A DNA stretch of 64,000 nt from a bacterium (GTDB lineage Bacteria > Patescibacteriota > Minisyncoccia > Phycocordibacterales > UBA6899), in NCBI GenBank assembly GCA_043736515.1, contig JAYTCK010000021.1, positions 3,607 through 67,606 of the forward strand, in the 5' to 3' direction. Made by a program: the position numbers and the translations under genes. The notes under the pieces are model-generated. The model did no database searches and was not told where the DNA came from. It saw only the letters and a program-made list of their open reading frames with translations. Below, piece after piece: positions 3,970 to 21,107 of this stretch. How positions within the stretch are numbered: position 1 is the first letter of the stretch; every line of letters begins with the position of its first letter.

Positions 3970-5238
3970 TCAAACTTTTAATAATTTGAGAAACTTCTCT
4001 TTATTCTTCCAGGGTCCGATCATCGCCAAGTTAAGTTTTTCGGTGACAAAAATTTCACGGGCTACTTTTTGAAGGTCCTTGGCAGTTATTGCGTTTATCT
4101 TACCGATGATCTCTTTGGGGGTCACAGTCTTTTTTCGCAATATATATTGAATACCATAAAACTCGGAAAGTTCGTCGGAAGACTCGAGGCCCAACACAAG
4201 TCGCCCGGCGATCATATCTTTGGTTTTTTTGAGCTCGATTTCGGGGACTAAATCAGTCTTGAGCCGTTTAAATTCCGCAAGAATAGCGGACACTGCTTCA
4301 GCGGCGCGCTCATTCACCACGCCCGCAGATGCAGCAAAAACACCGTGATCGGTAAATGCGTCGTTGGCAGCGCGCACATAGTATCCAAGTCCCATTTCAG
4401 TACGCACTTTTTGAAAAAGTCTTGAGCTCATTCCGGACCCAAGCACACCCGCCAAAAGCACGAGTGCGTAATGATACTTGTGTCCGAGCGGAAAGCTACG
4501 CACCCCAAGCACTAAATGTGTTTGGTCAGACTCTTTAAAGTTCAAGAGTAGAGCGGGCTTGTTTTGGCGATCATCAACCTTCACCTTATTTTTCTTTTTT
4601 CGTTTCGGTTGATCACAAAACTGCTTTGCTATAAGTGCTTCAATTTTTTTGGTATTGAACTTTCCCGCGACAACTACCGTTGTTGCATTAGGCATATAAT
4701 GCATTGCGCGGTATGCAAGAAAATCTTCACGGATAAATGTCGTTACGAGTTCCTTTGGTCCAGCAATTTCTTGACCGGCAGGTTGGTCCCCGTAGAGCAG
4801 TTTCATAAAAATATCACTCACCTTACGCATGGGCATGTCTTCGTACATATTGATCTCCCCCACAATCGCACCCTTTTCCTGTTCTATATCCTCTTGTCTA
4901 AAAAGAGAGTTGCAGTAAATATCACCGAGAACGTCGAGGGCTTTTGGTAAATACGGAGCAGCAACTTTTGCATAATAGCCCGTATATTCATGGCCAGTAA
5001 AAGCATTTGATTCAGCGCCCAAACTATCGAACTCTTGTGCGATGATGCTTTGATTTGGACGATTGGTGGTCCCCTTAAAACACATATGCTCAAGAAAGTG
5101 GGAGATGCCGCTTCTGTTTTTGGTTTCGTACTTAGATCCTGTCTCCACAAGCACAAGGGCTGTTGCGGTATGCTGGTCTTTCATCGGGATAAGCAGTATC
5201 GAAAGTCCGTTTGTTAATTTTTTTATGGTTGGCTTCAT
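3970..5238 (-). CDS. M16 family (insulinase/pitrilysin-like) zinc peptidase
   Basis: 422 aa. HFLEHMCFKGT inverted zinc-binding HxxEH motif near the N-terminus, followed by a downstream Glu. Confidence 0.8.
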   Translation of the reverse strand: MKPTIKKLTNGLSILLIPMKDQHTATALVLVETGSKYETKNRSGISHFLEHMCFKGTTNRPNQSIIAQEFDSLGAESNAFTGHEYTGYYAKVAAPYLPKALDVLGDIYCNSLFRQEDIEQEKGAIVGEINMYEDMPMRKVSDIFMKLLYGDQPAGQEIAGPKELVTTFIREDFLAYRAMHYMPNATTVVVAGKFNTKKIEALIAKQFCDQPKRKKKNKVKVDDRQNKPALLLNFKESDQTHLVLGVRSFPLGHKYHYALVLLAGVLGSGMSSRLFQKVRTEMGLGYYVRAANDAFTDHGVFAASAGVVNERAAEAVSAILAEFKRLKTDLVPEIELKKTKDMIAGRLVLGLESSDELSEFYGIQYILRKKTVTPKEIIGKINAITAKDLQKVAREIFVTEKLNLAMIGPWKNKEKFLKLLKV

Positions 5239-5271: not shown

Positions 5272-6486
5272 CTATTTTTTATAGAGGAGTAAGGCTCCTG
5301 GGTACAAAAGTGCCGTTGCAAGTGCCGAAAGAACAAGCCCAAGGCGCACCGCGTTTTCCCCTTCCCCAACCAAACTGACGAGTAGAGCAAGGATGAGTAG
5401 CGACAGAACCCGCCACACCCCAAATGCCGCGTCACGCAGGATCATTGTTGGAAAAAAATCTCTCCCTTTTATTCCGAGTGTCTCCATGGTCTCAAGGTCT
5501 ATCACGTGAGATGAAACGCGAAGGAGGGGTTTGAGCACTACAGAAAAAAGAGTAAAAAGAATGAATACGATAAACTCAAAACGCACCGCAAGCATGAGTG
5601 TAATGAGGGCTGTTGCCATTGCGGTGACAAAAAGAAATCGTAACCGATTGCCGCTATGGCGATGACGTGAGAGCGCGAGAAGTGCAACTGCTGAGATGAC
5701 GGCAAAAGCCGTATGGAAAAGACCAACCTGTGTTTCACTACCAAGAAACAGGATTGCCGCAATCGGGAGCACAATTCGACTGAAAGCAAACTGTGCTGAA
5801 GCTGAAAAAAGATACAACTGCCCCCTCAGATTTTTACGATCATGGAAAAAATGGTGTACGTCCGCGCGATCAATCGGTAAAGGCCTATACGTGCGAATAT
5901 GTCGAAACAGCGGAATCCCTGCGAGATACAGAAGCGGTGAGATTGCGAACAAAAGCGCGTAGCTACCTAAATGAAAAAAATCACGCGAAAGATAAAAAAG
6001 TAGTGTTGCAACTGCTGGAGCGGTAAGGTCAATTACCTGATCGCCCGCGGAGAGCACAGAGGAGTAATAATCACGCTCATGATCCTTTGTCTCCGTAAGT
6101 TCGAATGTGTGGAGTGTGACCCAATAGAGTCCCAACCCAAAACCATTCCAAAAAGAAAAGTAGAGCGCATCATGCTTCGTGACATCCCCATAGAGAAAAA
6201 GAAAACTGAAGCAGAGGCTGATAAACGCCCACATATATCCCCATTTCATGTTCACACGCCACTGTGCCATAAGAGCGCCGATTAGGCTGAAGCCCAGTGC
6301 GCATCCGATAAAATAAACGGCGACAGTGACAATGTTGAATGACACGCTGTGAAATCGCTGATAGAGAAAGATCTGCACAAACATGCCGGTCATCGCCCCC
6401 ACAAAACTGTATACCCAGTGTAAATACAGCATTGCCCGAACAGGGGTGCGGAGGTCGCTGAATTGACGGAGTGCGGTTTTAAGCAT
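5272..6486 (-). CDS. Polytopic membrane transporter, MFS-like
   Basis: 404 aa with roughly 12 hydrophobic segments in two halves of six. No specific motif recognised. Confidence 0.45.
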   Translation of the reverse strand: MLKTALRQFSDLRTPVRAMLYLHWVYSFVGAMTGMFVQIFLYQRFHSVSFNIVTVAVYFIGCALGFSLIGALMAQWRVNMKWGYMWAFISLCFSFLFLYGDVTKHDALYFSFWNGFGLGLYWVTLHTFELTETKDHERDYYSSVLSAGDQVIDLTAPAVATLLFYLSRDFFHLGSYALLFAISPLLYLAGIPLFRHIRTYRPLPIDRADVHHFFHDRKNLRGQLYLFSASAQFAFSRIVLPIAAILFLGSETQVGLFHTAFAVISAVALLALSRHRHSGNRLRFLFVTAMATALITLMLAVRFEFIVFILFTLFSVVLKPLLRVSSHVIDLETMETLGIKGRDFFPTMILRDAAFGVWRVLSLLILALLVSLVGEGENAVRLGLVLSALATALLYPGALLLYKK

Positions 6487-6513
6487 GTTTCCATACTAAC
6501 ACACGCACATTTT

Positions 6514-7095
6514 CTACCGTAGAGATAGGTGTGGGCGTACGAATGCAACTGCTCCCTCGAGATTCTCTTCAATACTACCACTTACATCCAAGAGATGTAC
6601 GGGGCGCAAGTCTTTGTATGCGGAATGAAATTTGATGAACTCACTCATGACACTTTGCAAAAAATCGATATCGTATTCATTCCACTCTGCTGCGCTTGTG
6701 CGATTGCGTGCTTTTATTCGCGCAGTGACCGTCTCAATGGGGGCATCAATGATAATGTGCACATCGGGAAGTTGCTTGGGAAGATGGTCGTACACGGAGC
6801 GGAAAATATTACGCGCGTGCTCATCGAGGAGCACATTGGCGTACGCCGAAATATCTGCCCAGCCTCTATCGCTGACATAAATCTTTTTGGGGTCTTTCAT
6901 TTGTGCTTCCTTCAGTATCATCTGTCGCACAAACCAGAGCTCGGAGAGCAGTGCATTGCCATTAACCCCAAGTGGCGGAGGCGGTATGGCTTCATCGATA
7001 GACTCTGTGAGATGCACTGCGCCAAGTTCCTCTGCGAGGCGCTTTGCGAGCGTTGTCTTCCCTATGCCATGTGCTCCCGAGAGGACGATATACAT
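6514..7095 (-). CDS. Deoxynucleoside kinase-like P-loop kinase
   Basis: 193 aa. P-loop LSGAHGIGKTT, YVSDRGWAD (ERS-like), and an Arg-rich lid RIKARNRTSAAEW. Resembles the dNK/dCK/dGK family. Confidence 0.55.
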   Translation of the reverse strand: MYIVLSGAHGIGKTTLAKRLAEELGAVHLTESIDEAIPPPPLGVNGNALLSELWFVRQMILKEAQMKDPKKIYVSDRGWADISAYANVLLDEHARNIFRSVYDHLPKQLPDVHIIIDAPIETVTARIKARNRTSAAEWNEYDIDFLQSVMSEFIKFHSAYKDLRPVHLLDVSGSIEENLEGAVAFVRPHLSLR

Positions 7096-7153
7096 GCATT
7101 CATTTTATCACAAACGATCCGAACCTGAAGCTTGGGTCGTTTGTGAGGTCTGA

Positions 7154-8476
7154 CTAAGAGAGGCGGGAAATGAGATTGGAAACCAAGACACGCTCTTGTG
7201 TGCCCGTGTCACGATTGCGGAGCGTTACCGTGTCGAGTAGATCTGGGTTTTCACCGAGCGTGTCGAAGTCGATGGTGACACACCACGGGGTTCCTATTTC
7301 ATCTTGCCTGCGATAGCGCTTGCCGATATTGCCGTTATCATCAAAAAGAACATTTCCCATTTCTTTTTTAAGTATCGCAAACACTTCACGTGCTTTTGCG
7401 ACAAGTTCAGGTTTATTTTTCAGGAGCGGGAATACTGCTACGCGTACGGGTGCAATGTTTGGCTTAAATTTTAAATACACGCGCTTTTCACCACCCATTT
7501 CATCTTCGGTGTATGCCTCAGCCAGTATTGCAAGCATGGTGCGCCCGATACCGAGCGACGGCTCGATCACGTGCGGAAGAAATTTTTCTTTTTGCTCTTC
7601 GTCAAAATATTCAAGGTTTACTTTACTCCCTTCTTGATGGCTCTTGAGGTCAAAATCAGTGCGGTACGCAAGACCCCACAATTCTTTTCTTCCCATGGGA
7701 AAATCATATTCGAAATCTATAGTACGTTTAGAGTAGTGCGCAAGATCTTCACCTTCTACCTCAAGCTCGTGAAGCTTTTCTTTAGAAAGACCGATCGCTT
7801 CACTAAATTTCCACATTTCATTACGCCAGTGTTCAAAATACTCACTCCAGGTGCCGGGACGGACAAAGTATTCTACCTCCATCATCTCAAGTTCGCGTAC
7901 ACGGAAAATAAAATCTCGGGGCGCAATCTCATTTCTAAATGCTTTGCCGATTTGCGCGAGACCAAAGGGTAGCTTGGGGTGGAAAGTGTCGACAACGTTT
8001 TTGTAATTCACAAACATGCCTCCCGCTGTTTCCGGGCGGAGGTAGACAATACTGCCCGCATCCTCCATTGCACCTACCTGTGTTTTGAACATCATGTTGA
8101 ACTGTCGCTCTTCGCCGAGTGCTCCTCCACATTCAGGACATTTCATTTTGTTCTCGAGGTGATCTGCACGAAAGCGCTTTTTGCATTTTGTGCATTCCAC
8201 AAGCGGGTCGGAAAAGCCACCAACGTGACCTGATGAAACCCATGCCTGCGAATTCATGAGTATTGCCGCATCAATGCCGTACATATCTTCGCGATCGTCT
8301 ACAAACATCTTCCACCAAAGATTTTCAATGTTTTTCTTAAGTGTTACCCCAAGCGGACCGTAGTCCCACGTCCCCGCAAGGCCGCCATAAATTTCGGAGC
8401 CTTGAAAGACAAAGCCGCGGCGCTTGCACAGCGAAATGATTGCTTCCATTTTTTCGTTTACGTTCTCCTTCGCCAT
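7154..8476 (-). CDS. glyQS: Glycyl-tRNA synthetase (alpha2 dimeric type)
   Basis: 440 aa. N-terminus MAKENV..RRGFVFQGSEIYGGLAGTWDYGPLG and class II motifs. Classic archaeal/eukaryote-like GlyRS. Confidence 0.9.
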   Translation of the reverse strand: MAKENVNEKMEAIISLCKRRGFVFQGSEIYGGLAGTWDYGPLGVTLKKNIENLWWKMFVDDREDMYGIDAAILMNSQAWVSSGHVGGFSDPLVECTKCKKRFRADHLENKMKCPECGGALGEERQFNMMFKTQVGAMEDAGSIVYLRPETAGGMFVNYKNVVDTFHPKLPFGLAQIGKAFRNEIAPRDFIFRVRELEMMEVEYFVRPGTWSEYFEHWRNEMWKFSEAIGLSKEKLHELEVEGEDLAHYSKRTIDFEYDFPMGRKELWGLAYRTDFDLKSHQEGSKVNLEYFDEEQKEKFLPHVIEPSLGIGRTMLAILAEAYTEDEMGGEKRVYLKFKPNIAPVRVAVFPLLKNKPELVAKAREVFAILKKEMGNVLFDDNGNIGKRYRRQDEIGTPWCVTIDFDTLGENPDLLDTVTLRNRDTGTQERVLVSNLISRLS

Positions 8477-8608
8477 AGTTTTCTTATGCTACACGGATTT
8501 CTCGGAATCTGCAAAAACAGCTATTAGTCTAAACGGATGCCCCATCATGATTAGAGATGGGGCTTCCTGGATGGCATCATCAGAATGATCCGTTTGAACT
8601 TAGAGAAC

Positions 8609-10516
8609 TTATGGTTTTATCTCGTAGTCGTTAGGCCCTGCCTTCGGATCCGTCGAAAGTCTCGTTGTAAGATCAGTACGCGAGACATTAATAACTTCTC
8701 CCGTAAAAACATCAGTGGCGGTAAAAAGAATGTCCGTCACAATTTTGGGGATAGATTGAGTCTGAGTAATGCTCGGGGTAAGTATGACCTGGAATGCTAC
8801 TTCACGAGGTGGCTTTGCTACACCTACTCCGGCAGAAATATCTCCAGGACGCCACACAACTTGATTAGTCGTGCGATCAAACATAATGTTTTCTTTACTC
8901 GGGGAAACTGAGCCTGCCCACGCAACATATGGAGGAAGTGTGCCACGTATCTCGCCGTTCGTAAGATTGTTTGAAGTGTTTACGATGTTCCAAATTATCG
9001 TGTACGTTGTTTCTTGTTCCACTCGTGGAGGAATCGGGCCGCTGTTCACAAATGGCCCGACATAGTACACAACGCGTGTCGCGAATTGCGCTTGCGATGT
9101 CACTTTTGCACACTTGGTAATAACGGTTTTAATTTCTTCGGGGACTCCCGACTCAGAAATACGCTTACCGCGCACTGTGACATCGGCGCAAAGAGTAATG
9201 TTAGTAAGAGTACCCTGAGGCGGAAGTGGGGAGAATGCAAACTCATTTTCCCCTGTCGCCCCCGTTTCCATCACTGCAAGTGAAGGATCGCCTCGTTCAT
9301 CCCATAAGATTGTGTCGTCGATCGATCGAAAAAATCCTTTATCCGCCGCAGTGACTGTTGTGCGGTCAAGTCCAACCCCTCGTAGGTGTACTTCGATCTG
9401 CGCATTAATAATTTTTGTTGCGAGGTTGTTTTTCCACTTTACCTTTCCGGTCACGCGCCCACCAAAATGCGCAACAGCCTCCTCGGCAGGTACCCCATTT
9501 AAGGTGAGTTCGACTCCAATGAATGGGCGCATCAACCTCACAGAAGAGAGCACCTTGCTGTATATTGTTTCGATATCACGCGCCATGCGGTCGTTCGAGA
9601 CTCCGATGTTCGTATAAAATACTTTTTCCTGAGTATCCTCTCCGGAAAGCACGCCGCGTACCTTCACTTCAAACTTGCCAGTTGAAGAGAGCGTCCCTAT
9701 CTTCCATGTATTATTGCCCAGTGTGGGTTTTGGATCTGCATCGATAAACGTAAATCCGAGGGGATATTCCATTTGCATGAGTACATCCCGAAGCGGTATC
9801 GCCGTATTCGAAACCGCTTTGATGGTGAATTCAATCGTTTGCCCTGCGTTTATTTCCTTGAGTGTGTTGACAGTGACATTGATAGGCGATGCGAGCAGGT
9901 TAATATTGCGTGTTTCTGTTTTCGAAAAAACTGAGTTCACACCCTGAAAACGATACTCGAGGATTGCCCGAATCTCTTTGTCTGTGTTTGCTTCACCGAG
10001 AAAAATTGCCCTCGTGCGAAATTCTACCGTGGCGCCAGGAAGGAGTTTGTCAAAAATTTTCTTGTCATCATTGAGATCTTTGTCCGGATTTTCTCCTGAT
10101 CGCGTGCCCGAGGGAAATACCACTTTAAGACTTGCGTACTCGAGCGGAACACGATTGTTATTTGTAATTCTCACCATCATATCTACGGGCGCACCGGGCG
10201 TGGACGCGACGGGGAGATCAAACGCAATCTGAATATTCTTTTCAGAAGGTTTCGCGAGCGGATCAAATAATTGATAGAGCAAATACCCCCCAGAAAGTAT
10301 CGCAGACAACACGGCAACAACAACGAGGGTCTTGAGCATACGCACGCCTGTTCTTTTTTGTGACATACCGTGAATAATTTTTGTGTCACCCCAATCACTC
10401 GCCACCTCAATATCGGAAGCGGATAATTCGGATTCTCGCTCATGGGACTCCCCGTCAGGCCTATAGAGACCGCGCTTGGCACGCTCGATGCGACTGCTGT
10501 CGTATTCAGTATCCAT
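8609..10516 (-). CDS. Hypothetical membrane-anchored protein with a large beta-rich extracytoplasmic region
   Basis: 635 aa. Charged N-terminal cytoplasmic segment, a single TM (LKTLVVVAVLSAILSGGYLLY), then ~540 aa of T/V/N-rich repetitive beta-strand-like sequence. No recognisable catalytic motif. Confidence 0.55.
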   Translation of the reverse strand: MDTEYDSSRIERAKRGLYRPDGESHERESELSASDIEVASDWGDTKIIHGMSQKRTGVRMLKTLVVVAVLSAILSGGYLLYQLFDPLAKPSEKNIQIAFDLPVASTPGAPVDMMVRITNNNRVPLEYASLKVVFPSGTRSGENPDKDLNDDKKIFDKLLPGATVEFRTRAIFLGEANTDKEIRAILEYRFQGVNSVFSKTETRNINLLASPINVTVNTLKEINAGQTIEFTIKAVSNTAIPLRDVLMQMEYPLGFTFIDADPKPTLGNNTWKIGTLSSTGKFEVKVRGVLSGEDTQEKVFYTNIGVSNDRMARDIETIYSKVLSSVRLMRPFIGVELTLNGVPAEEAVAHFGGRVTGKVKWKNNLATKIINAQIEVHLRGVGLDRTTVTAADKGFFRSIDDTILWDERGDPSLAVMETGATGENEFAFSPLPPQGTLTNITLCADVTVRGKRISESGVPEEIKTVITKCAKVTSQAQFATRVVYYVGPFVNSGPIPPRVEQETTYTIIWNIVNTSNNLTNGEIRGTLPPYVAWAGSVSPSKENIMFDRTTNQVVWRPGDISAGVGVAKPPREVAFQVILTPSITQTQSIPKIVTDILFTATDVFTGEVINVSRTDLTTRLSTDPKAGPNDYEIKP

Positions 10517-10805
10517 ACTTTTATTATTATACCATTATTTTTATAGATGGAAAACATGAAATACTTCCGTAAATGGATGAAATTCGCGACGCGGGGTGAG
10601 CTGTGGTTTGAGAACCCATTCTGATGGACCACAGCGCAAGACCTTTTGACCCAGCCCCAGTTTTGTTTACTGAATTGCAAAACTGGAGCTGGGCAAAAGG
10701 TGTACTGCCCATGTAATGGGAGCGATGAGGAAGATGTATTCTGATACATTGACCGAGTCGCAGGGACCCCGCAACAAAGAAGTTCGCCATTTATGGGAGT
10801 ATTTC

Positions 10806-11393
10806 CTAGAGCTGAGAAGCTTGGAGGGCGTTATTTACTCCGAGAAGAAGTGCTGTGCGCTCACGATGCACACTCAGAAGTGTATCAGGAGTCCACGCCT
10901 CGTCAGCAAGGAGGTGTGCGTATGCTTCCCCTCCTTCCCAATATCCAAGGTGTGCGAGGAGGCGGATCACGAGCAAAAGCTCAGCAGCGCGTAAATGCGC
11001 TTCGTCGGAAATTTGCTCGAGAAATTGGAGTCCGGAAATAATATCATCAAACAGCGCTTCATGACGTTCCTCACCTTGAATGAGACGCTCCAAGAGCCCT
11101 GCATGGTGTGCGAGAATACGACGTTTTGATGTATGCCGCCAGAGTTCACCATGTGAGTGCGTAGGGCGGGCAGAGATAAGCCGCCACCCATGTTTACCGC
11201 GAATAAGGTCGATCTCGGCATGCGAGAACGTTTGAAGTGCGTAGCGCAATTTTGAACGCGACTCGCGAAGACTCTTCGCATGTGCCATGACCAGCCCGAG
11301 TTCGCGTGTATAGCAAAAAAGACTGCGGTCTCCTTCGCCGACAGCCCGCCCGCCCAAGATCAAGGCTTCCGTATGATAGATATGATAGGACAC
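10806..11393 (-). CDS. recO: DNA repair protein RecO (short form)
   Basis: 195 aa. The N-terminal OB-fold pattern HTEALILGGRAVGEGDRSLFCYTRELGLVMAHAKSLRESRSKLR matches the RecO N-terminal consensus. Shorter than typical RecO. Confidence 0.55.
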   Translation of the reverse strand: MSYHIYHTEALILGGRAVGEGDRSLFCYTRELGLVMAHAKSLRESRSKLRYALQTFSHAEIDLIRGKHGWRLISARPTHSHGELWRHTSKRRILAHHAGLLERLIQGEERHEALFDDIISGLQFLEQISDEAHLRAAELLLVIRLLAHLGYWEGGEAYAHLLADEAWTPDTLLSVHRERTALLLGVNNALQASQL

Positions 11394-11471
11394 TTGCTCA
11401 GTATACAGTTGGCTGTTTCCTGTTGCCAGAAAAGCAAAAGCCGGAATTTTATGAGATTTTACCTTGAGATA

Positions 11472-14400
11472 TTACACACGAGAAACTGCAAGCGCGGACC
11501 CCTCAACGTAACTTGTGGCACCGACAGTGCTCATTACTTCTTCTTTGTACTTCTCAAGGAGTGGCTCAAGCACGCTTGGAATGGTGAGCACAATACGGTC
11601 GTTCGGATTGAGTTCTGCTTTCTTGCGGAGATCCTGAATGGTACGAACAAGATCACGCATGTCACCTTCTTCTTTTAATTCCGGGGTAATGATTGTATCC
11701 AGTTCTACTTCGTTACCTTCTACCACTTCCTTAACATTAACCTCGTCAGAAACGATCGCTTTCATTGCCTCGGAAAGTTTCGGTGCAGAGAGTGACGCGA
11801 GCGGTTGGCGCACTTTTATACCCGCCTTCGCGCGGATCTCAAGTGCACGAGTCACAACTTTGCGTGCTTCCTCCATTTCTTCGAGGATGGTGCTCGGGGC
11901 GACTCCGATCGAAGGCCAATTCTCAAGATGGACGCTTTGTTTTTGGCCCGTCATAGGAAGTCGACGATAGAGGTCATCTGCAAGAAACGGCATGAATGGC
12001 GCAATCAGTTTTGAAAGCTGGAGCAGTATCCACCCGGTCGTATCTATGGCAAAGGAGCGGTCTGCCCCATCTTCTGACTTGAATCTGTCTCTGGAGCGGC
12101 GTAGGTACCACGTCGAGAGATCTTCGACGAACGGCACAATCGGTCGCGTCGCCTTATCAAGCTCGTGCGTATCGAGGTGGTGCGTTACCTCAGCATGGGT
12201 TTCATACCAGCGCGCAAGGATCCATCGGTCGAGGACGTGCGTGCTTTTTGGCACTTCGCTCGGCACAGCTTTTCCTGCCGCATACATTTCATAAAATGAG
12301 CGGACATTGTCGATGCGGAGTGTCATTTTTTTGAAAATCTCATCCACCCCCGACGCAGCAAAACGCAATTCCTCACTGCGCACAACGGGCGAGTTCATCA
12401 TGTAAAACCGGAGTGCGTCTGCACCATACTTTTGCGCAAGCAAGAGCGGATCGGGATAATTCTTGAGCTTCTTCGACATTTTTTGTCCGTCTTCAGCAAG
12501 GATGAGGCCGGTCATGATGACGCTTTTGTATGCCGCACGATCAAAAAGCCCAACAGAAAGGACGAGCATTGAGTAAAACCACCCGCGTGTTTGATCAACG
12601 CCTTCAGCAATAAAATCTGCCGGGAAATTTTTCATGAACAGCTTCCCCTCACGCGTCGTCTCGTCACCCATATAATGAAACTGCGCATAGGGCATCGAGC
12701 CGGATTCAAACCAGCAATCAAACACTTCGGGAATGCGACGCATAGTACCGAGTTCGCACGAGCAAAGATATTCGATGCGATCAATATAAGGGCGATGGAG
12801 GTCGAGCTCGAAACTACTGTTGTGTGGAATGGGTACAAACTGAAGCTCTCGCGCTTGTGCGTAGCCAATATAGTCATCCTCTCCCTCTACGCGCATCCAA
12901 GCCGCTTCCCCTGGTGTTGCCCCACGCGCGACCGCATCCATCATCCACGAACCGTACTCGTGAGTGACAAGCAGAATATGTTTACCTTTATACTTTGCAT
13001 CAATGTCGTACAAGAATTCGGCGATGCGTGTTTTCATCTGCTCCAGATTTTCACCGTTGGGGCTTGGCTTCGTGAATTTTTCCAAGGTGGATGTGAAATA
13101 TGATCGGTAGGTTTCAATAGCGCACCCACTGAAGTCTCCTGTATTTACTTCCGCAATGCGCGGATCGATAAGAATATCTGCTTCCGGAATACCCAGCACA
13201 CCCGCGACGATTGCGGCGGTTTCTTTTGTGCGGAGCACCGGAGAAGCGATGATGAGATCAATACCCGCATCCTTCAATTTTGAAGCATTCGTCTTCACGC
13301 TCGCCCGCCCCTTCTCCGTCAGATGAATATCATCCTCCGGTTTGTAGCTCACCACACCGCGCACGTTGGAGTCCGACTCGCCGTGACGCATAACGGTGTA
13401 GCGATTGTTTGCCCCGATTTTTTCTTTGAGTTCGGAGACGGATCCGAGCGTGTCTACCTTGCCGCACTTATTGCATTTCCACACAGGAAGCGGCGCTCCC
13501 CAGTAGCGACTGCGCGAAATAGCCCAATCGCGTGCTCCTTCGAGCCACTTTCCAAAACGCCCCTCGCGTGCGTTCTCGGGAATCCAATTAATCTCTTTGT
13601 TCTCTTCGATCAGACGGGGTTTCAGTGCCGTCACATTCACAAACCACGATGATGCGGCGTAATTAAGCAGCGGAGTATCACAGCGCCAGCAATGCGGATA
13701 GCTGTGTTCTATTTTTTCTTTTGCAAATAAAACTCCTTTAGCTGCAAGTACTTTAATCACCGCGACATCGGTCGATGTGTGGTCGTCCTTGGGTTTCGCT
13801 TGAAGTCCTGCGAAGTCAGTAACCTCGGGTTTCATTCTGCCGTCCATTCCCACATGCTGAATCAGTGGGAGCTTCAGCTTCTTTGCTAGCTCCATATCTT
13901 CTTCACCGAATGCCGGTGCTTCGTGCACGATACCTGTTCCACTTTCGACGGTCACAAAGTCCGCCCCGACAACCTTCCAGGCATTCTCGCGGTGCTCGAG
14001 TTTTTCGTCGTTGGTGTAATAGTCAAAGATGGGTGCATATGAAAGTCCTACGAATGCTTTTCCCTTGCGTTCCTCGACAATCTCGTATTCTTTGTCTTTG
14101 AAAACGCGCGCAACTAATTCTTTTGCGACGACGTAGCGCTTTCCTCCGTGAAGGACGACCACATACATGACATCGGGATTAACTGCGACCGCAACATTGC
14201 CCGGGAGAGTCCACGGTGTTGTCGTCCATGCAATAAGAAAAGTCCCTTGCTCTTCGAGAAGTTGAAACAACACATACACCGAAATATCTTTGATATCTTT
14301 GTACGCAAGCGTGACTTCCGATGCGGCAAGTGTTGTCTCACAGCGCGGACAAATGTGCATCGATTTAAATCCCTCGTAAATCAGCTTTTTGTCATAGAGG

Positions 14401-14939
14401 GTTTTGAACGCCCACCATACGCTTTCGGAATATGATGAATCCATTGTCTTGTATTCATTTTCCATGTCCACAAAGCGGCCCATGCGCGGCACAATGGCGC
14501 GCCACTCCTCATCGTAGCGAAAAACACTCTCTCGTGCTTTTTGGTTGAACTTTTCAATACCATATTCTTCAATATCTTTCTTGGCCTTGAAACCGAGTTC
14601 TTTCTCGATGATATTCTCGATGGGAAGCCCGTGACAGTCCCATCCCCACTGGCGACGCACGAAGCGGCCGCGCATTGTTTGGTAGCGTGGAATCACGTCT
14701 TTTATCGTCCCCTGAAGCAAGTGCCCGTAGTGCGGAAGTCCTGTGGCAAACGGTGGGCCATCATAAAAAACGTACGGCTCATTCCCTTCTGTCTGCACAA
14801 GAGATTTCTGAAAAATACTTTCGGCCTTCCAGTGCCGAAGCACTTCTTCCTCGCGCTCCGGAATGGAGTCATTTTTTTTCAACGGTGGAGGTACTGCCGA
14901 TGCGGTACTATTGTCTTTCTTTTGTTCATCGGTGGCCAT
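11472..14939 (-). CDS. ileS: Isoleucyl-tRNA synthetase (type 2) with an inserted histidine-phosphatase (PGAM-like) domain
   Basis: 1155 aa. PPFATGLPHYGH HIGH motif, WTTTPWTLPGN editing domain, KMSKKL. About aa 512-705 (nt ~12825-13406) carry RHGESDSN plus a downstream LLVTHEYGS, a complete histidine-phosphatase domain inserted between the CNKCG zinc knuckle and DLHRPYID. Confidence 0.9.
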   Translation of the reverse strand: MATDEQKKDNSTASAVPPPLKKNDSIPEREEEVLRHWKAESIFQKSLVQTEGNEPYVFYDGPPFATGLPHYGHLLQGTIKDVIPRYQTMRGRFVRRQWGWDCHGLPIENIIEKELGFKAKKDIEEYGIEKFNQKARESVFRYDEEWRAIVPRMGRFVDMENEYKTMDSSYSESVWWAFKTLYDKKLIYEGFKSMHICPRCETTLAASEVTLAYKDIKDISVYVLFQLLEEQGTFLIAWTTTPWTLPGNVAVAVNPDVMYVVVLHGGKRYVVAKELVARVFKDKEYEIVEERKGKAFVGLSYAPIFDYYTNDEKLEHRENAWKVVGADFVTVESGTGIVHEAPAFGEEDMELAKKLKLPLIQHVGMDGRMKPEVTDFAGLQAKPKDDHTSTDVAVIKVLAAKGVLFAKEKIEHSYPHCWRCDTPLLNYAASSWFVNVTALKPRLIEENKEINWIPENAREGRFGKWLEGARDWAISRSRYWGAPLPVWKCNKCGKVDTLGSVSELKEKIGANNRYTVMRHGESDSNVRGVVSYKPEDDIHLTEKGRASVKTNASKLKDAGIDLIIASPVLRTKETAAIVAGVLGIPEADILIDPRIAEVNTGDFSGCAIETYRSYFTSTLEKFTKPSPNGENLEQMKTRIAEFLYDIDAKYKGKHILLVTHEYGSWMMDAVARGATPGEAAWMRVEGEDDYIGYAQARELQFVPIPHNSSFELDLHRPYIDRIEYLCSCELGTMRRIPEVFDCWFESGSMPYAQFHYMGDETTREGKLFMKNFPADFIAEGVDQTRGWFYSMLVLSVGLFDRAAYKSVIMTGLILAEDGQKMSKKLKNYPDPLLLAQKYGADALRFYMMNSPVVRSEELRFAASGVDEIFKKMTLRIDNVRSFYEMYAAGKAVPSEVPKSTHVLDRWILARWYETHAEVTHHLDTHELDKATRPIVPFVEDLSTWYLRRSRDRFKSEDGADRSFAIDTTGWILLQLSKLIAPFMPFLADDLYRRLPMTGQKQSVHLENWPSIGVAPSTILEEMEEARKVVTRALEIRAKAGIKVRQPLASLSAPKLSEAMKAIVSDEVNVKEVVEGNEVELDTIITPELKEEGDMRDLVRTIQDLRKKAELNPNDRIVLTIPSVLEPLLEKYKEEVMSTVGATSYVEGSALAVSRV

Positions 14940-15010: not shown

Positions 15011-15766
15011 TTATTCACTTTTTGAAAAAGCGAGCCATAAAAGGATTTTATGACGAAGTTGAGATTGGAGATGGGAGATCTCACCGCTATTATCGATCAC
15101 GAGGTGAGCGTAGGGTTTAAGCATCCGAATTTGCGCTTCAGCTTCCGCCTCGCGACGCATAAGAAATTCAGCATATGTCATTTCTGCATCCCCGGGATTT
15201 TCATTTCGGACCACGGTACGCCTGTATGCAATCTCCGGATTACATTCAAGATAGACAAGCCTGAAATTAGGCTCAGCAAGTATCGTGCCGATATCCACTA
15301 ATCTCCGAATGCCTTCGATTACAGCGACCGGGCTCCCTGAGCTCTGTTTCGAACTCCGCGCAATGATGGCTCGCTCGAGAATGTTCTCAGCGAAGATGGA
15401 CCGCAGCGCCGTGGAGAGACTCTGCATGGTGACGCGGTCGACTTTTATTTCGTTGTCGTTGAATAGCCAGTTCTGCACCACCCAATCAGTAAACTCAAGA
15501 AACCTATTTTCATGCGCTGCCCTCGCGACGATATCCCAAGGGTATACGGCACACAATCCCTCTTCGAGCGCGTGCTCGAGCTGGTCCCGATCCTCACGAG
15601 AATAGTCTCCTGCAATTTTGCGTTCATTGAACCAGACAATAAACTCGCGCAACGAATCAGAGAAGCGGAGGGAGCGCGTGCCCGGATATAACGTTTTGAC
15701 ATATGTTGCGGATGCAGTTTTGCCGCCGCCAATTTCGGCCACAAAACCAAGCTGAAGCTGTGCCAT
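15011..15766 (-). CDS. dNMP-kinase-like P-loop kinase (paralog A)
   Basis: 251 aa. GFVAEIGGGKTASATY P-loop, VIEGIRRLVDI and VIDNSGE motifs. Clearly paralogous to 20021..20578 and reminiscent of the T4 gp1 dNMP kinase family (IDDVRF.nE). Confidence 0.5.
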   Translation of the reverse strand: MAQLQLGFVAEIGGGKTASATYVKTLYPGTRSLRFSDSLREFIVWFNERKIAGDYSREDRDQLEHALEEGLCAVYPWDIVARAAHENRFLEFTDWVVQNWLFNDNEIKVDRVTMQSLSTALRSIFAENILERAIIARSSKQSSGSPVAVIEGIRRLVDIGTILAEPNFRLVYLECNPEIAYRRTVVRNENPGDAEMTYAEFLMRREAEAEAQIRMLKPYAHLVIDNSGEISHLQSQLRHKILLWLAFSKSE

Positions 15767-17549: not shown

Positions 17550-19202
17550 TTACATCTTAGTTGGTGCGGGGATGCCAAGCAACCCTAAACCTTGTTTCAG
17601 AATACACGAGGTCATTTCTACGAGTGCGAGCTTGTATGGCTCGTCCGGAGCACCGTCGAGTACAATCGTATTGCCGTAAAACCCATTAAACTCTCGCGCG
17701 AGCTCAATTAAGTAGGTCGCCACATAGTGCGGCTGGCGTTCAGCTTGGGCGCGAAGCACGATCTCGGGGAATCGTAGGATGTGCTTATGGAGTGAGGGGA
17801 CTTCTGTATGCACCATTGTAGAGACATCACTTTTCTTGCCCTCCCCCTTTGCGAGAAGCGATCGTGTACGAGCATATGTGTACTGAAGGTACGGCCCGGA
17901 ATCCCCCTCGAAAGAGAGCGATTGCTCAAAATCAAAAATAATATCTTTGCCGGAAGCCTGGCGCAGAATTGAATATTTTATTGCACCAATTGCAACTTGC
18001 TCCGCGATCGTATTTTTTTCCTCGTCGGAAAACTTACTCTCGGCAATTTTTGCACATGCTTTTACTTTCGTTTCCTCAATGAGCGACTCTGCGGTGATGA
18101 CATCTCCTGTGCGTGACGACATCTTACCAGTAGGTAGCCTCAGCATTCCGTGGGAATAGTGCTCCGTCTTCGCTCTCAAGTCTGGCAAAACTTTACTCAT
18201 TGCATCAAGGAGAACCTTGAAGTAGTCGTTAATTTCATTTCCTGTAATGATGATTGAAATGTCGTAGGAAAATTTATCATATTTGATTTTTGCAAAACCA
18301 AGCTCTTTTGCTTCATATGTGGGTAGTCCTTCTTTATTGATGAATACACGAGTATGCAATCCTTTTGACTCATCACCCTTATAGACCACAGCACCATCGC
18401 TTTTTTCAAAAATATCTGGGCGCTGCAGAACAAGCTCCTTACCAAAGCCCCCCGTCTCACTTTCAAAAAAATACTCATCGAATTGGGTTCCGAGGCGCTT
18501 ATAGATTTTCTCAAAATATTCGAGACTTTCTTTCCGTCCCGCATCATAGAGTGCGTTGATTGCCTCATCCGAACGCACATAGATTTTTTTATTTAATTCG
18601 GAAATTTCCGTTTTTGCCTCATCGCTCGCACGTGCCCCTGCCGCATATGCCTGTGCCCACGAAAGTTCCGGGTTATGCGATTTTCCCCACATCGCCTTCG
18701 CCACATGAAGTCCCACATCGCCCTGATAACAGGCGCGTTTTGTTTCAGCGCCCGAGACTTCAATGAGACGAGATATGGACTCGCCAATAGTGTTCGCCAT
18801 CAGGTGGCCGATATGAAATTCCTTAAACGGATTAGGGTCGGTGTATTCGACAATAACTTTTTTGCCATTAAGGGTATCGTTCGCACCGAATTGTTCGCCC
18901 AGAGCGAGTGCGGCATCGAGCGCCTGTGCAAAATAGTCTTTTGAAAGGGTAAAATTAATGAATCCGGGACCGGCAATTTCAATTGCGGCAATATTGGGAT
19001 CGTTGACTGCGTTCAATTTCGCCACAATTTCCTCTGCCAGCTGCCGAGGATTTTTGCCCGCTTTTTTCGCTCCAGCCATAGCGACATTGGTCGCCCAATC
19101 TCCATGGCTTAAATCAGCGGGGTGTTCCAAAAGAACAGGAATGTCGTTTATTCCCAGTCCCCCCAAAATATTTACCAAATACTGCTTCAACGCTGTGTCC
19201 AT
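17550..19202 (-). CDS. argS: Arginyl-tRNA synthetase
   Basis: HIGH motif EYTDPNPFKEFHIGHL and the ArgRS N-terminal add-1 domain. Start trimmed to the ATG of MDTALKQ; the track start at 19226 is TTG. Confidence 0.9.
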   Translation of the reverse strand: MDTALKQYLVNILGGLGINDIPVLLEHPADLSHGDWATNVAMAGAKKAGKNPRQLAEEIVAKLNAVNDPNIAAIEIAGPGFINFTLSKDYFAQALDAALALGEQFGANDTLNGKKVIVEYTDPNPFKEFHIGHLMANTIGESISRLIEVSGAETKRACYQGDVGLHVAKAMWGKSHNPELSWAQAYAAGARASDEAKTEISELNKKIYVRSDEAINALYDAGRKESLEYFEKIYKRLGTQFDEYFFESETGGFGKELVLQRPDIFEKSDGAVVYKGDESKGLHTRVFINKEGLPTYEAKELGFAKIKYDKFSYDISIIITGNEINDYFKVLLDAMSKVLPDLRAKTEHYSHGMLRLPTGKMSSRTGDVITAESLIEETKVKACAKIAESKFSDEEKNTIAEQVAIGAIKYSILRQASGKDIIFDFEQSLSFEGDSGPYLQYTYARTRSLLAKGEGKKSDVSTMVHTEVPSLHKHILRFPEIVLRAQAERQPHYVATYLIELAREFNGFYGNTIVLDGAPDEPYKLALVEMTSCILKQGLGLLGIPAPTKM

Positions 19203-19265
19203 AGAGAGATAGTAACATAGGCGCAAAAAGAAAAAAGCCCGGATCTATGACCCTGGCTTCTTTGG

Positions 19266-19952
19266 TTATACAATTCCTTTTTCTTTGAGATATGCGTAGA
19301 TCTCTTCGTGGATGACTTCTTTTGGTCGAAGCGTCTGACTGTCCGCCATGCAGTTAATCACTTTCCATCCCTCGCGAGTTGCCACTTCGAGATATGCACC
19401 TGAAGCCTTTTGCAAATGACTGAGATCGGCCTCGTGAATATCACGCTTTTTACCCTGGGTGTATTCTCGTGCAGCTTTTTTGTCCACGAGCATCTGCCCA
19501 ACTTCAGGGGGCACATACAAGAGGACGTTCGCATCAGGACGCGGCAATTCAAATATGCCGTACTCAAGCTCTTTCAGCCATTCAATGCATTCCGCACGTT
19601 CTGTAGGATCATCGATCTTCCCTGCCTGATGACCCATGTTAGAAGAAACATAACGGTTGCTCACAATGATGGCACCTTCTTGGAGCGACTTCCGCATGTC
19701 GAAGGAAGCATCGTAACGATCAAGCGCATAAAAGAGCGATGCTTTCTTGGCTCCAATTGTTTCAAGCGGTCCGTATTCCCCGCGCAAATATCTTTCCACA
19801 AAATATGCTGAAGGGTTTTTATATCGTGGAAAATCAGCAAGCGATGCGTTTCTGCCTTCTCTCGCCAGTCGCTCAATGAGCATCCCCGCATGAGTGGCTT
19901 TTCCTGAGCCATCAGTGCCGTCAATTACCACAAGTTTGCCGAGTGTGTTCAT
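19266..19952 (-). CDS. tmk: Thymidylate kinase
   Basis: 228 aa. VIDGTDGSGKAT P-loop and DRY-like motif, typical Tmk. Confidence 0.85.
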   Translation of the reverse strand: MNTLGKLVVIDGTDGSGKATHAGMLIERLAREGRNASLADFPRYKNPSAYFVERYLRGEYGPLETIGAKKASLFYALDRYDASFDMRKSLQEGAIIVSNRYVSSNMGHQAGKIDDPTERAECIEWLKELEYGIFELPRPDANVLLYVPPEVGQMLVDKKAAREYTQGKKRDIHEADLSHLQKASGAYLEVATREGWKVINCMADSQTLRPKEVIHEEIYAYLKEKGIV

Positions 19953-20020: not shown

Positions 20021-20578
20021 CTACTCTCCGTACTTTTTGACGATTGCGTCAAGCGCAGCTTGGAGCTCAGGAAGACTCCCCGAGTTATCAATCACATCAG
20101 CGGCAAAAGCTTCCAGCTGTGTAATGCCGCGCTCTGCTTCGCGTTGATGATCTCTTTCAAATTCTTCAAATGTCTTCGTCGCATCGTCGGCCTTTTCCCC
20201 GCGCTTCACCATGCGTTCGTACCGTGTGCGCATGGGGGCGCTAATATAGCAGAGTTTAAAATCAGGTAATTCCCGCAAATACTTCACATCTTCAAGTCTT
20301 CTCACCCCGTCGATCACAATAAGATTTGCGGTGGCGCCACGCGCATCTTCAAACATGATCTTTGCGAGCAGATCTTCACCAAATTCTTTACGCAACGATG
20401 AAGAGAGGCGCTGCAGTGTGTCGCGATCAGTAGCAAGGTGGAGGCGCCCTACAATATCAAAAAGGGGCGTTGAGAAACGAAAGGTTTCCGCAGCAAACTT
20501 TTCTCGGAGATAGTCCGCACAGGTACCCTTTCCCGCGGCAATTTCTCCAGCAAAACCTAAAATTATTTTTTTTGGCAT
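20021..20578 (-). CDS. dNMP-kinase-like P-loop kinase (paralog B)
   Basis: Start trimmed to MPKKIILGFAGEIAAGKGT. VIDGVRRLEDVKYLRE and VIDNSGS motifs, paralogous to 15011..15766. Trimmed start abuts the dCMP deaminase stop. Confidence 0.55.
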   Translation of the reverse strand: MPKKIILGFAGEIAAGKGTCADYLREKFAAETFRFSTPLFDIVGRLHLATDRDTLQRLSSSLRKEFGEDLLAKIMFEDARGATANLIVIDGVRRLEDVKYLRELPDFKLCYISAPMRTRYERMVKRGEKADDATKTFEEFERDHQREAERGITQLEAFAADVIDNSGSLPELQAALDAIVKKYGE

Positions 20579-20588
20579 TATGTAAAAA

Positions 20589-21107
20589 TTATTCGTCTTC
20601 GTCATCCGACATATTTGCATATATTTCCACCTCTTTTGAAAGTAATTCGAATTCCACTCCCGCATCACGGAGCACTTCCTTGCTCCGTGCAGCCGCATGA
20701 TAATCTTTCTTTGCAACCACGCGAATGATACCCGCATTAACGATGAGTTTTGCGCAGGTGTAACAAGGAGTCATGTGTGCATATAATGTCGCACCCTCAA
20801 GTGCGGCACCGATACGCGCAGCCTGAGCGATTACATTTTGCTCCGCATGTGTCGTTCGTACGCAATGTTGCGTCTTCGTCCCGTCTGCGTGGGTCACCGT
20901 ATGGAGCTCATGTGCAAGATCGTCGCATGACGGAAGCCCGGCCGGAGCACCGACATATCCCGTCGCAAGTATGCGCTTGTCGCGCACCGCGACACAACCG
21001 CTGCGTCCCCTATCGCACGTTGCACGAGTTCCCACGACCTCGGCGATCTGCATGAAATATTCATCCCATGTGGGGCGCTTATAGGGAGTATTTTCTTCCG
21101 TCTTCAT
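20589..21107 (-). CDS. dCMP deaminase (ComEB-like)
   Basis: HAEQNVI and PCYTCAKLI zinc-binding motifs. Start trimmed to MKTEENTPY. Confidence 0.8.
   Translation of the reverse strand: MKTEENTPYKRPTWDEYFMQIAEVVGTRATCDRGRSGCVAVRDKRILATGYVGAPAGLPSCDDLAHELHTVTHADGTKTQHCVRTTHAEQNVIAQAARIGAALEGATLYAHMTPCYTCAKLIVNAGIIRVVAKKDYHAAARSKEVLRDAGVEFELLSKEVEIYANMSDDEDE

Follow-up and report, generated by a model that had tools for sequence, protein, structure and literature searches.

An isoleucyl-tRNA synthetase gene with a large in-frame insert

We analysed a stretch of 64,000 nucleotides from a patescibacterial genome (assembly GCA_043736515.1, contig JAYTCK010000021.1, forward-strand positions 3,607 to 67,606; hereafter, the window) and found that its only ileS gene, at positions 11472-14939, encodes an isoleucyl-tRNA synthetase (IleRS) in which a complete domain of the histidine phosphatase type is nested. 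The gene, the domain and the residues that carry the argument lie as follows (window coordinates, with residue numbers of the 1155-residue protein; conservation in 61 IleRS sequences for the synthetase signatures and in 117 full-length relatives for the phosphatase residues; dPGM, cofactor-dependent phosphoglycerate mutase).

11472..14939, minus strand: ileS, a 1155-residue type 2 IleRS with a nested phosphatase (open reading frame, TIGR00392, Pfam, AlphaFold2, Foldseek)
14721..14732, minus strand: HYGH (HIGH) synthetic-site signature, residues 70-73; P69, H70, G72 and H73 invariant in 61 sequences
13464..13475, minus strand: C489-x-x-C492, first half of the connective-peptide zinc knuckle, directly upstream of the insert; both Cys at least 90% conserved
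12825..13421, minus strand: inserted branch-1 histidine phosphatase domain, residues 507-705; boundaries from the 8c8u alignment
12921-13394, minus strand: Pfam His_Phos_1 envelope (PF00300), residues 516-673
13380..13388, minus strand: R518-H519-G520, the RHG motif, H519 being the predicted nucleophile; invariant in 117/117, aligns with dPGM R10/H11
13230..13232, minus strand: R570, second phosphate-pocket Arg, in the SPxxRTxET motif; invariant in 117/117, aligns with dPGM R62
13149..13151, minus strand: E597, predicted general acid/base; invariant in 117/117, aligns with dPGM E89
12960..12962, minus strand: H660, second catalytic His (predicted), in the LLVTHEY motif; 116/117, aligns with dPGM H184
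12756..12764, minus strand: C726-S-C728, second half of the zinc knuckle, directly downstream of the insert; both Cys at least 90% conserved
12468..12482, minus strand: KMSKK (KMSKS) synthetic-site signature, residues 820-824; K820, M821 and K823 invariant in 61 sequences

Outside the insert, the protein has the features of an ordinary synthetase. The ileS model TIGR00392, whose match falls into two parts on either side of the insert, scored 870 bits (cut-off 621), and Pfam found tRNA-synt_1, Anticodon_1 and DUF5915, with the Pfam IleRS profile likewise split around the insert. An AlphaFold2 model of the full-length protein had a predicted local distance difference test score (pLDDT) of 87.8 and a predicted template-modelling score (pTM) of 0.80, with pLDDT of about 90-96 in the insert region, and Foldseek superposed the IleRS scaffold on type 2 IleRS structures with template-modelling scores (TMt) of 0.80-0.87 (0.80 for 8c8v). 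The editing-site motif WTTTPWT is invariant in the same 61 sequences that were used for the synthetic-site signatures. The models for the mupirocin-resistance IleRS exceptions MupA and MupB, which have a cut-off of 1900 bits, gave 726 and 697. The model for IleRS with an embedded acetyltransferase (NF040702, ileS_w_GNAT) gave 314 bits against 1999, and there was no acetyltransferase Pfam match in the window IleRS. By its sequence, the window IleRS is thus a generic type 2 enzyme, neither MupA nor MupB, and from the conservation of its motifs we infer that it aminoacylates tRNA-Ile.

To place the insert, we aligned the protein with Priestia megaterium IleRS2 (PmIleRS2; 8c8u). Residue 506 of the window IleRS pairs with residue 476 of the 8c8u chain and residue 706 with residue 480, so the insert comprises residues 507-705 and H706 is already an IleRS residue, as is the rest of the "HN-S" at residues 706-708 (H706 pairs with H480 of 8c8u). 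About 199 residues therefore stand in place of a 3-residue loop of the connective-peptide (CP) zinc knuckle, whose second half, C726-S-C728, aligns with the CxC/CxxC of insert-less IleRS. The paper on the PmIleRS2 structure assigns residues 40-168 and 513-632 to the HUP core; the site at 476-480 lies outside it and therefore in CP2, and the yeast IleRS paper splits the same region into a CP core, CP1, CP2 and CP3. The insertion site is the peripheral CP2/CP3 zinc knuckle, an insertion in the Rossmann fold in its own right, rather than the Rossmann core proper.

The G+C content of the insert equals that of its flanks and base composition is continuous across them. An assembly chimera was rejected because the same architecture is present in 120 of the 120 nearest homologues, from independent samples, and in 80 of the 80 best genome loci. 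We also rejected an intein, as there were no Hint or intein Pfam matches at E ≤ 0.01, and a linker; in both cases a phosphatase fold accounts for the whole insert. The original prediction, made from the DNA letters, had argued against both, and it had named four motifs that lie where it said: CNKCG at residues 489-493, RHGESDSN at 518-525, LLVTHEYGS at 656-664 and DLHRPYID at 713-720. Its extra block was real, but its limits of about residues 512-705 (12825-13406) give way to 507-705 (12825-13421). Likewise, the embedding in IleRS stands, whereas the placement within the catalytic core of the synthetase does not, since the site is the CP zinc knuckle.

The insert resembles small-metabolite histidine phosphatases

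The Pfam family His_Phos_1 (PF00300) matched residues 516-673 far beyond chance, with 102 bits where 21.7 is the cut-off (E = 4.4e-29). When the insert alone was modelled by AlphaFold2 with 36 homologues, it gave a compact alpha/beta domain (pLDDT 94.2, pTM 0.91). Its Foldseek neighbours were the phosphoserine phosphatase PspA (4ij6), the riboflavin-pathway HFP (9mmh), the glucosyl-3-phosphoglycerate phosphatase GpgP, Rv2419c (4pz9), PhoE (1h2e) and CobC (6nru). These matches, including those to dPGM, had a probability of 1.00, TM scores of 0.7-0.77 and 20-25% identity, and phosphatases ranked ahead of mutases. A sequence search of the PDB returned the same set of small-metabolite phosphatases at E ~1e-8.

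We then looked at conservation among the 117 full-length relatives, in which the insert is 41-89% identical to that of the window. Besides the residues listed above, N525 is invariant in 117/117, and T541, G544, S566, D592, R594, Y611, F615, R638, E661, Y662, W665 and G673 are near-invariant. In the full-length model, R518-H519-G520 come right after strand E513-518. A PhoE-like cap region is present with conserved Y611, F615, E620, G629 and E630, and the second His is followed by an H-E-Y-x-x-W motif peculiar to the nested clade. Insert length is 197-206 residues in 116 of the 117. Mean identity to the window protein is 0.55 for the insert, compared with 0.62 for the editing domain, 0.62 for the anticodon-binding domain and 0.42 for the C-terminal domain. 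The nested domain is acidic, with –3.4 charges per 100 residues, more so than the rest of the IleRS. Sequence and modelled structure agree by every measure used that the insert is a member of the branch-1 histidine phosphatase superfamily, and the conserved residues make it very probable that the nested domain is catalytically active. Because the HIGH, KMSK and editing motifs of the IleRS and the catalytic residues of the phosphatase are all conserved, both enzymes look functional.

These results bear out the prediction of a complete branch-1 histidine phosphatase domain with its predicted catalytic residues intact (R518, H519, N525, R570 and E597 in all relatives, H660 in all but one). The checks proposed with it pointed the same way: the profile search gave a significant His_Phos_1 match, structure prediction gave a self-contained fold for the insert, and a survey of IleRS relatives found the same insertion throughout the nearest homologues and the best loci.

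To ask which kind of histidine phosphatase this is, we compared the domain with named families. The best phosphatase-type NCBIfam match was the archaeal dPGM model NF038349, at 80 bits against a cut-off of 225; the remaining gpm models gave at most 46 bits. The third-best-scoring phosphatase family was the bifunctional RNase H/acid phosphatase (NF005567), at 73 bits against 326. We compared the mutase-specific positions of Escherichia coli GpmA (a reference sequence whose residue numbering checked out) with 36 nested and 19 non-nested family members. R90 is replaced by V or I, Y92 by T, K100 by I and N186 by Y, and the R116/R117 segment is deleted. We therefore rejected a canonical dPGM identity: the catalytic core matches, but the mutase residues are absent and the scores are sub-threshold. 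The domain is PhoE/PspA/CobC-like.

The nested form is widespread in Patescibacteria

All 120 nearest homologues, with identities from 100% down to 55%, carry PF00300; by their source names they belong to Lloydbacteria, Yonathbacteria, Minisyncoccota, the Parcubacteria group and the Patescibacteria group. When we searched 1.84 billion cluster representatives with the insert alone, there were 719 matches at E ≤ 1e-10, and among the best 150 of these (50%-identity cluster representatives), 101 were IleRS or IleRS fragments with the domain embedded. In a scan of one genome per species, at least 486 pattern-matched stretches encode a relative; because two patterns were used, the number of distinct genomes is smaller. 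The best 80 of these loci are all from Patescibacteria and all have the domain embedded in IleRS, the 4 apparent exceptions being cut by contig ends. They include Lloyd-, Yonath-, Nomura-, Campbell-, Vogel- and Wolfebacteria, Paceibacterota and Minisyncoccia, and the closest locus among the matches listed is in a Candidatus Lloydbacteria metagenome-assembled genome (74% identity).

A stand-alone phosphatase gene lies between argS and ileS in related lineages

A profile built from the non-IleRS members retrieved a large stand-alone family of about 189 residues, found for example in Staskawiczbacteria. These proteins are annotated only as "histidine phosphatase family protein", "PhoE" or, for one homologue at JGI, "probable phosphoglycerate mutase". 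We examined seven stand-alone contexts, together nine loci. In six of the seven, the gene sits in a compact same-strand argS-phosphatase-ileS cluster with argS upstream, in the order smpB (opposite strand), argS, in some cases an unnamed gene, the phosphatase, in some cases a CYTH gene, ileS, recO, CLIPPER/DUF7619, glyS and an M16 peptidase. Wherever the stand-alone phosphatase gene directly adjoins a neighbour, the gap is 0-4 bp. The ileS of these clusters encodes 818-974 residues, with just 10-20 residues of loop where the insert would sit.

The window has the same gene order (argS, ileS, recO, DUF11/CLIPPER-like, glyS, M16 peptidase), and there is no stand-alone phosphatase gene anywhere in its 64 kb. 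The neighbours of ileS are:

3970-5238: M16 peptidase, part of the cluster
7154-8476, minus strand: glyS, dimeric-type, part of the cluster
8609-10516: DUF11/CLIPPER-like gene, part of the cluster
10806..11393, minus strand: recO, downstream neighbour of ileS (Pfam RecO_N, RecO_C); same place in loci L081, L083, L087 and L089
15895..16992, plus strand: AAA_28 P-loop + CYTH fusion gene between ileS and argS (Pfam), a possible cluster member whose membership is uncertain
17550..19226, minus strand: argS, 558 residues, phosphatase domain absent (Pfam Arg_tRNA_synt_N, tRNA-synt_1d, DALR_1)

In 79 of the 80 insert-bearing loci there is no second copy of the phosphatase within 6 kb. In all 49 insert-bearing loci with argS in range, argS is upstream on the same strand, and in 13 of the 49 it directly adjoins ileS (gap of at most 124 bp). 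Given the lack of a second copy and the linkage to argS, the nested and the adjacent states are complementary, in a Rosetta-stone pattern. In a rough neighbour-joining tree of IleRS cores, computed without support values, insert-less enzymes nest among insert-bearing ones; this hints at more than one change between the fused and unfused states.

Other genes recur near the cluster. Genes for CYTH (triphosphate tunnel metalloenzyme) proteins are found as stand-alone genes at L083 6570-7160 and L084 3939-4529, in both loci directly between the phosphatase and ileS, and may represent a second phosphate-handling partner. We rejected a conserved P-loop kinase that would pair with the phosphatase in the manner of PFK2/FBPase2 or Pnkp: what the unnamed genes that follow argS and precede the phosphatase encode are unrelated membrane-anchored proteins that are not homologous to a 251-residue P-loop open reading frame of the window, and a homologue of the latter is near ileS in only 9 of 80 loci. 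In the window itself, P-loop-like open reading frames (GGGKT / AAGK) at 15011-15766 (minus strand), directly upstream of ileS and without a Pfam match, and at 20021-20737 (minus strand) are paralogues that are 37% identical over 131 residues. A thymidylate-kinase-like gene (19266-19952) lies between them, so that nucleotide-kinase-like genes are frequent in this region.

One insert-bearing genome also has a 176-residue stand-alone His_Phos paralogue directly after glyS (L064 11781-12311, plus strand; glyS at 10418-11737). It may be a degenerate copy, since its second catalytic His is apparently replaced ("VVTSRGP"). Just upstream of argS in two independent stand-alone loci are RVT_1 genes (L083 2890-3663 and L090 1650-2561), which could belong to a group II intron or retron-type element. 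In L087, ileS was called as two overlapping open reading frames, 5640-5942 and 5908-8568, the 100-residue piece being the N-terminus, which includes the HIGH region; a frameshift or sequencing error is the probable cause. In the window, four aminoacyl-tRNA synthetase (aaRS) genes lie on the minus strand within 18 kb (metG 1208-2662, glyS 7154-8476, ileS 11472-14939 and argS 17550-19226), and no tRNA genes were found in the whole 64 kb. Farther away are two very large tandem open reading frames, 45313-54075 (minus strand, 2920 residues) and 54271-58044 (minus strand, 1257 residues).

The same phosphatase subfamily is fused to other tRNA-related enzymes

In addition to the canonical site in IleRS, we found the subfamily joined to three other enzymes. 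It is C-terminal in an arginyl-tRNA synthetase (ArgRS; P0218, TIGR00456 405 bits) and in the threonylcarbamoyl-AMP synthase TsaC (P0224, TIGR00057 147 bits). In a valyl-tRNA synthetase (ValRS; P0136), at least 4 tandem copies come directly after the "SPQWF" return from the editing domain; the sequence ends inside the fourth copy and probably runs off the contig. The ArgRS fusion is what read-through of adjacent genes would give, and in its genome ileS is no longer in the cluster. For the ValRS and TsaC fusions we rejected read-through of neighbours: neither valS nor tsaC occurs in any of the 91 neighbourhoods examined (0/91), so these fusions are independent events elsewhere in the genome. ArgRS, ValRS and TsaC are all ATP-dependent, adenylate-forming enzymes of tRNA metabolism.

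Within IleRS, too, the position and number of copies vary. Two proteins (P0243 and P0253) have two tandem copies at the canonical site. P0160 has one copy there and one after the CxC...WF[DE]SG segment, and P0179 has copies only at non-canonical sites, after the CxC...WF[DE]SG segment and after the KMSKS region. P0228 carries a His_Phos domain and a GNAT domain, at a site that differs from that of the window, after the WFDSG region. The same protein has an in-frame IS200-like Y1 transposase domain in the editing-domain region (the three domains lying at residues 340-461, 680-854 and 935-1063); either the patescibacterial IleRS is a hotspot for in-frame domain insertion, or this is an assembly or gene-call artefact. 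The R-H-R-E-H set is intact in the scored IleRS-embedded, stand-alone, ArgRS-, TsaC- and ValRS-linked copies.

In the literature searched, we found no paper on a histidine phosphatase or PGAM domain fused to IleRS or to any other tRNA synthetase; one review contains both terms but is irrelevant. A survey from 2026, which covered 96,219 domain-annotated IleRS sequences, never mentions a phosphatase. The nested proteins have been public since about 2015 under automatic annotations, either IleRS or "class I tRNA ligase family protein". Thus, the suspicion that the arrangement was undescribed agrees with both the literature search and the survey: the nested IleRS phosphatase is conserved and apparently undescribed, although its component families, His_Phos_1 and type 2 IleRS, are known. 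Also new are the occurrence of the same phosphatase as a separate gene in the argS-phosphatase-ileS cluster of insert-less lineages, its fusions to ArgRS, TsaC and ValRS and, with these, an operon and fusion network that links the phosphatase to four tRNA-related enzymes.

A proposed tethered accessory phosphatase and its alternatives

We propose that the window protein is bifunctional, a type 2 IleRS that carries a PhoE/PspA/CobC-type phosphomonoesterase domain as a tethered accessory enzyme acting on a small phosphorylated compound; we give this reading a probability of about 0.5. The domain is the fused form of the ~189-residue open reading frame that sister Patescibacteria keep separate between argS and ileS. 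It interrupts the CP zinc knuckle in frame at its distal loop, with C489xxC492 on one side and C726xC728 on the other. By the chemistry of the family, H519 would attack a phosphomonoester to form a phospho-histidine, R518, R570, N525 and H660 would hold the phosphoryl group, and E597 would protonate the leaving group and then activate water. The substrate is probably a small molecule rather than a macromolecule: both the acidic surface of the domain and the conserved residues of its PhoE-like cap favour a small phosphomonoester. It would be diffusible, most plausibly a nucleotide-type by-product or inhibitor, and of a kind that would matter to ATP-dependent, adenylate-forming enzymes of tRNA metabolism.

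The domain is found free, at three or more IleRS loops, in tandem in ValRS and C-terminally in ArgRS and TsaC, and its job is therefore independent of a fixed geometry to the synthetic site; precise channelling to that site is unlikely. What is conserved is tethering to, or 1:1 co-expression with, adenylate-forming tRNA enzymes, and the domain would most likely be an accessory enzyme made 1:1 with its host. Whether its function is tied to aminoacylation and tRNA metabolism is a closer call, and we lean slightly towards such a tie over mere co-residence. A bolder version is that Patescibacteria have repeatedly wired a dedicated histidine phosphatase into IleRS, ValRS, ArgRS and TsaC, and elsewhere keep it in an argS-ileS operon, in order to remove a phosphorylated nucleotide by-product, an inhibitor or a blocking phosphate that poisons charging; this would be a hitherto unrecognised accessory activity of aminoacylation. 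We offer this tentatively, as possible rather than probable.

Several observations weigh against the proposal of a tethered accessory enzyme. Every NCBIfam equivalog score is far under its cut-off, and identity to the nearest characterised enzymes is only 20-25%. In two loci (L088 and L091), ileS and the phosphatase lie apart, and the cluster also holds recO, smpB and the CLIPPER-like gene, which have no functional link to aminoacylation; the genes may be adjacent through ancestral synteny, kept in a streamlined genome, and not through functional coupling. Only 3 of the 120 nearest ArgRS carry the fusion, and the ValRS and TsaC fusions are known from one cluster representative each.

The main alternative is a housekeeping phosphatase that hitch-hikes: a long-time neighbour captured by ileS in a compact genome, where fusion only ensures co-expression. 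Consistent with this, the cluster mixes unrelated genes (smpB, argS, ileS, recO, CLIPPER-like, glyS and the M16 peptidase), the phosphatase is separable from ileS, its position relative to the host enzyme is not conserved, and the ArgRS fusion is a rare read-through. However, an insertion inside the zinc-knuckle loop is no simple read-through, there are at least three distinct IleRS sites as well as tandem arrays, and the ValRS and TsaC fusions arose without those genes nearby. Moreover, adenylate-forming tRNA enzymes make up an estimated few percent of the genes of such genomes, so it is unlikely to be chance that all three non-IleRS partners belong to that class. We consider hitch-hiking possible but doubtful.

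We next considered a macromolecular substrate, either a 3'- or 2'-terminal phosphate on tRNA that blocks charging or a phosphoprotein, for example the synthetase itself once modified by a HipA-like kinase toxin. All four host enzymes act in tRNA metabolism, and tethering would be expected to raise the local concentration of a macromolecular substrate. Branch-1 histidine phosphatases include the protein phosphatases SixA, Sts and PGAM5, and the RNase H/acid phosphatase is among the three best-scoring phosphatase families. In contrast, the nested domain exceeds the remainder of the IleRS in acidity, its PhoE-like cap is of a type that normally limits access to small substrates, TsaC acts on small molecules, and the ArgRS C-terminus and the IleRS CP knuckle are at opposite ends of the tRNA-binding surface. 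A charge-based signal of RNA binding was rejected as well: the stand-alone proteins have a mean charge of +15, yet the neighbouring ArgRS, IleRS and RecO of the same low-GC loci are equally basic, and the basic pI is therefore a genome-wide low-GC effect. A macromolecular substrate thus seems improbable.

Phosphoglycerate mutase (PGM) has been reported missing from some Parcubacteria clades (PMC7304191), and the nested domain could be that enzyme, hidden from per-gene annotation. A passage of Jaffe et al. counted for this idea, as did the best phosphatase-type NCBIfam match (NF038349) and the JGI label of one stand-alone homologue. The score of that match, at about a third of its cut-off, and the absence of the mutase residues weaken it: all mutase-specific substrate-binding positions are replaced or deleted, and the structural neighbours are phosphatases before mutases. 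We regard a hidden glycolytic PGM as very unlikely. Least credible of all is a catalytically silent spacer or phospho-metabolite sensor that modulates IleRS allosterically, for although nested class I synthetase domains often work by conformational coupling, more than 100 diverged sequences, whatever the context, keep the nucleophile, both Arg, the acid/base and the second His with few or no exceptions, as is typical of retained catalysis and not of mere binding, and a phosphatase that stands alone lacks any partner that it could regulate in cis.

Implications and comparison with known systems

Aminoacyl-tRNA synthetases are among the best-studied enzymes; nested extra catalytic domains are rare in them, and the known ones, such as the editing domains, are mechanistically important. 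We know of no role for phosphomonoester hydrolysis in aminoacylation, and a specialist in these enzymes would find a nested phosphatase surprising. That much of a major bacterial radiation carries a second and apparently active enzyme within its IleRS raises the question of which phosphorylated molecule must be removed close to tRNA charging in ultra-small symbiotic bacteria. If the bolder version of our proposal is correct, the IleRS of the fused lineages would be truly bifunctional, with two mechanistically linked activities, in minimal scavenging cells. More generally, enzymatic functions can hide inside essential genes and be missed by per-gene annotation. Such hidden functions are relevant to pathway "gaps" in metabolic reconstructions for Candidate Phyla Radiation (CPR) bacteria, an example being PGM in Parcubacteria (PMC7304191), although the residue evidence argues against the nested domain being that missing PGM.

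The closest sequence and structure matches of the domain, PhoE, PspA, CobC and GpgP, share its fold, its length (about 190-210 residues), the RHG...R...E...H set and a D-x-R-x-x-E motif. They are free-standing metabolic enzymes, whereas here the domain is nested in an aaRS or encoded between argS and ileS. Canonical type 2 IleRS (8c8u/8c8v and Thermus thermophilus 1ile) has all its domains and motifs in common with the window IleRS but has a loop of 3-20 residues at the site, in contrast to the 199-residue enzyme domain of the window protein.

For the architecture as such there are precedents. Branch-1 histidine phosphatases are known to be fused to a second catalytic domain, the classic example being 6-phosphofructo-2-kinase/fructose-2,6-bisphosphatase (PFK2/FBPase2). 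Fusions of that type are end to end and both activities act on the same metabolite, while the partner in the window protein is a tRNA synthetase. The RNase H/acid phosphatase (NF005567, Mycobacterium tuberculosis Rv2228c type) joins a CobC-like His_Phos_1 domain to a nucleic-acid enzyme, but it is a terminal fusion with RNase H, and the window protein is a nested insertion in an aaRS. NF040702 (ileS_w_GNAT) is a precedent curated by NCBIfam for an unrelated enzyme domain embedded in IleRS, the inserted enzyme there being a GNAT and here a histidine phosphatase. Finally, the CP1 editing domain of class Ia synthetases follows the same architectural logic, a hydrolytic domain nested in the Rossmann connective peptide; CP1 is universal in IleRS, ValRS and leucyl-tRNA synthetase (LeuRS), has an unrelated fold and hydrolyses mis-acylated tRNA, whereas the nested phosphatase is lineage-specific.

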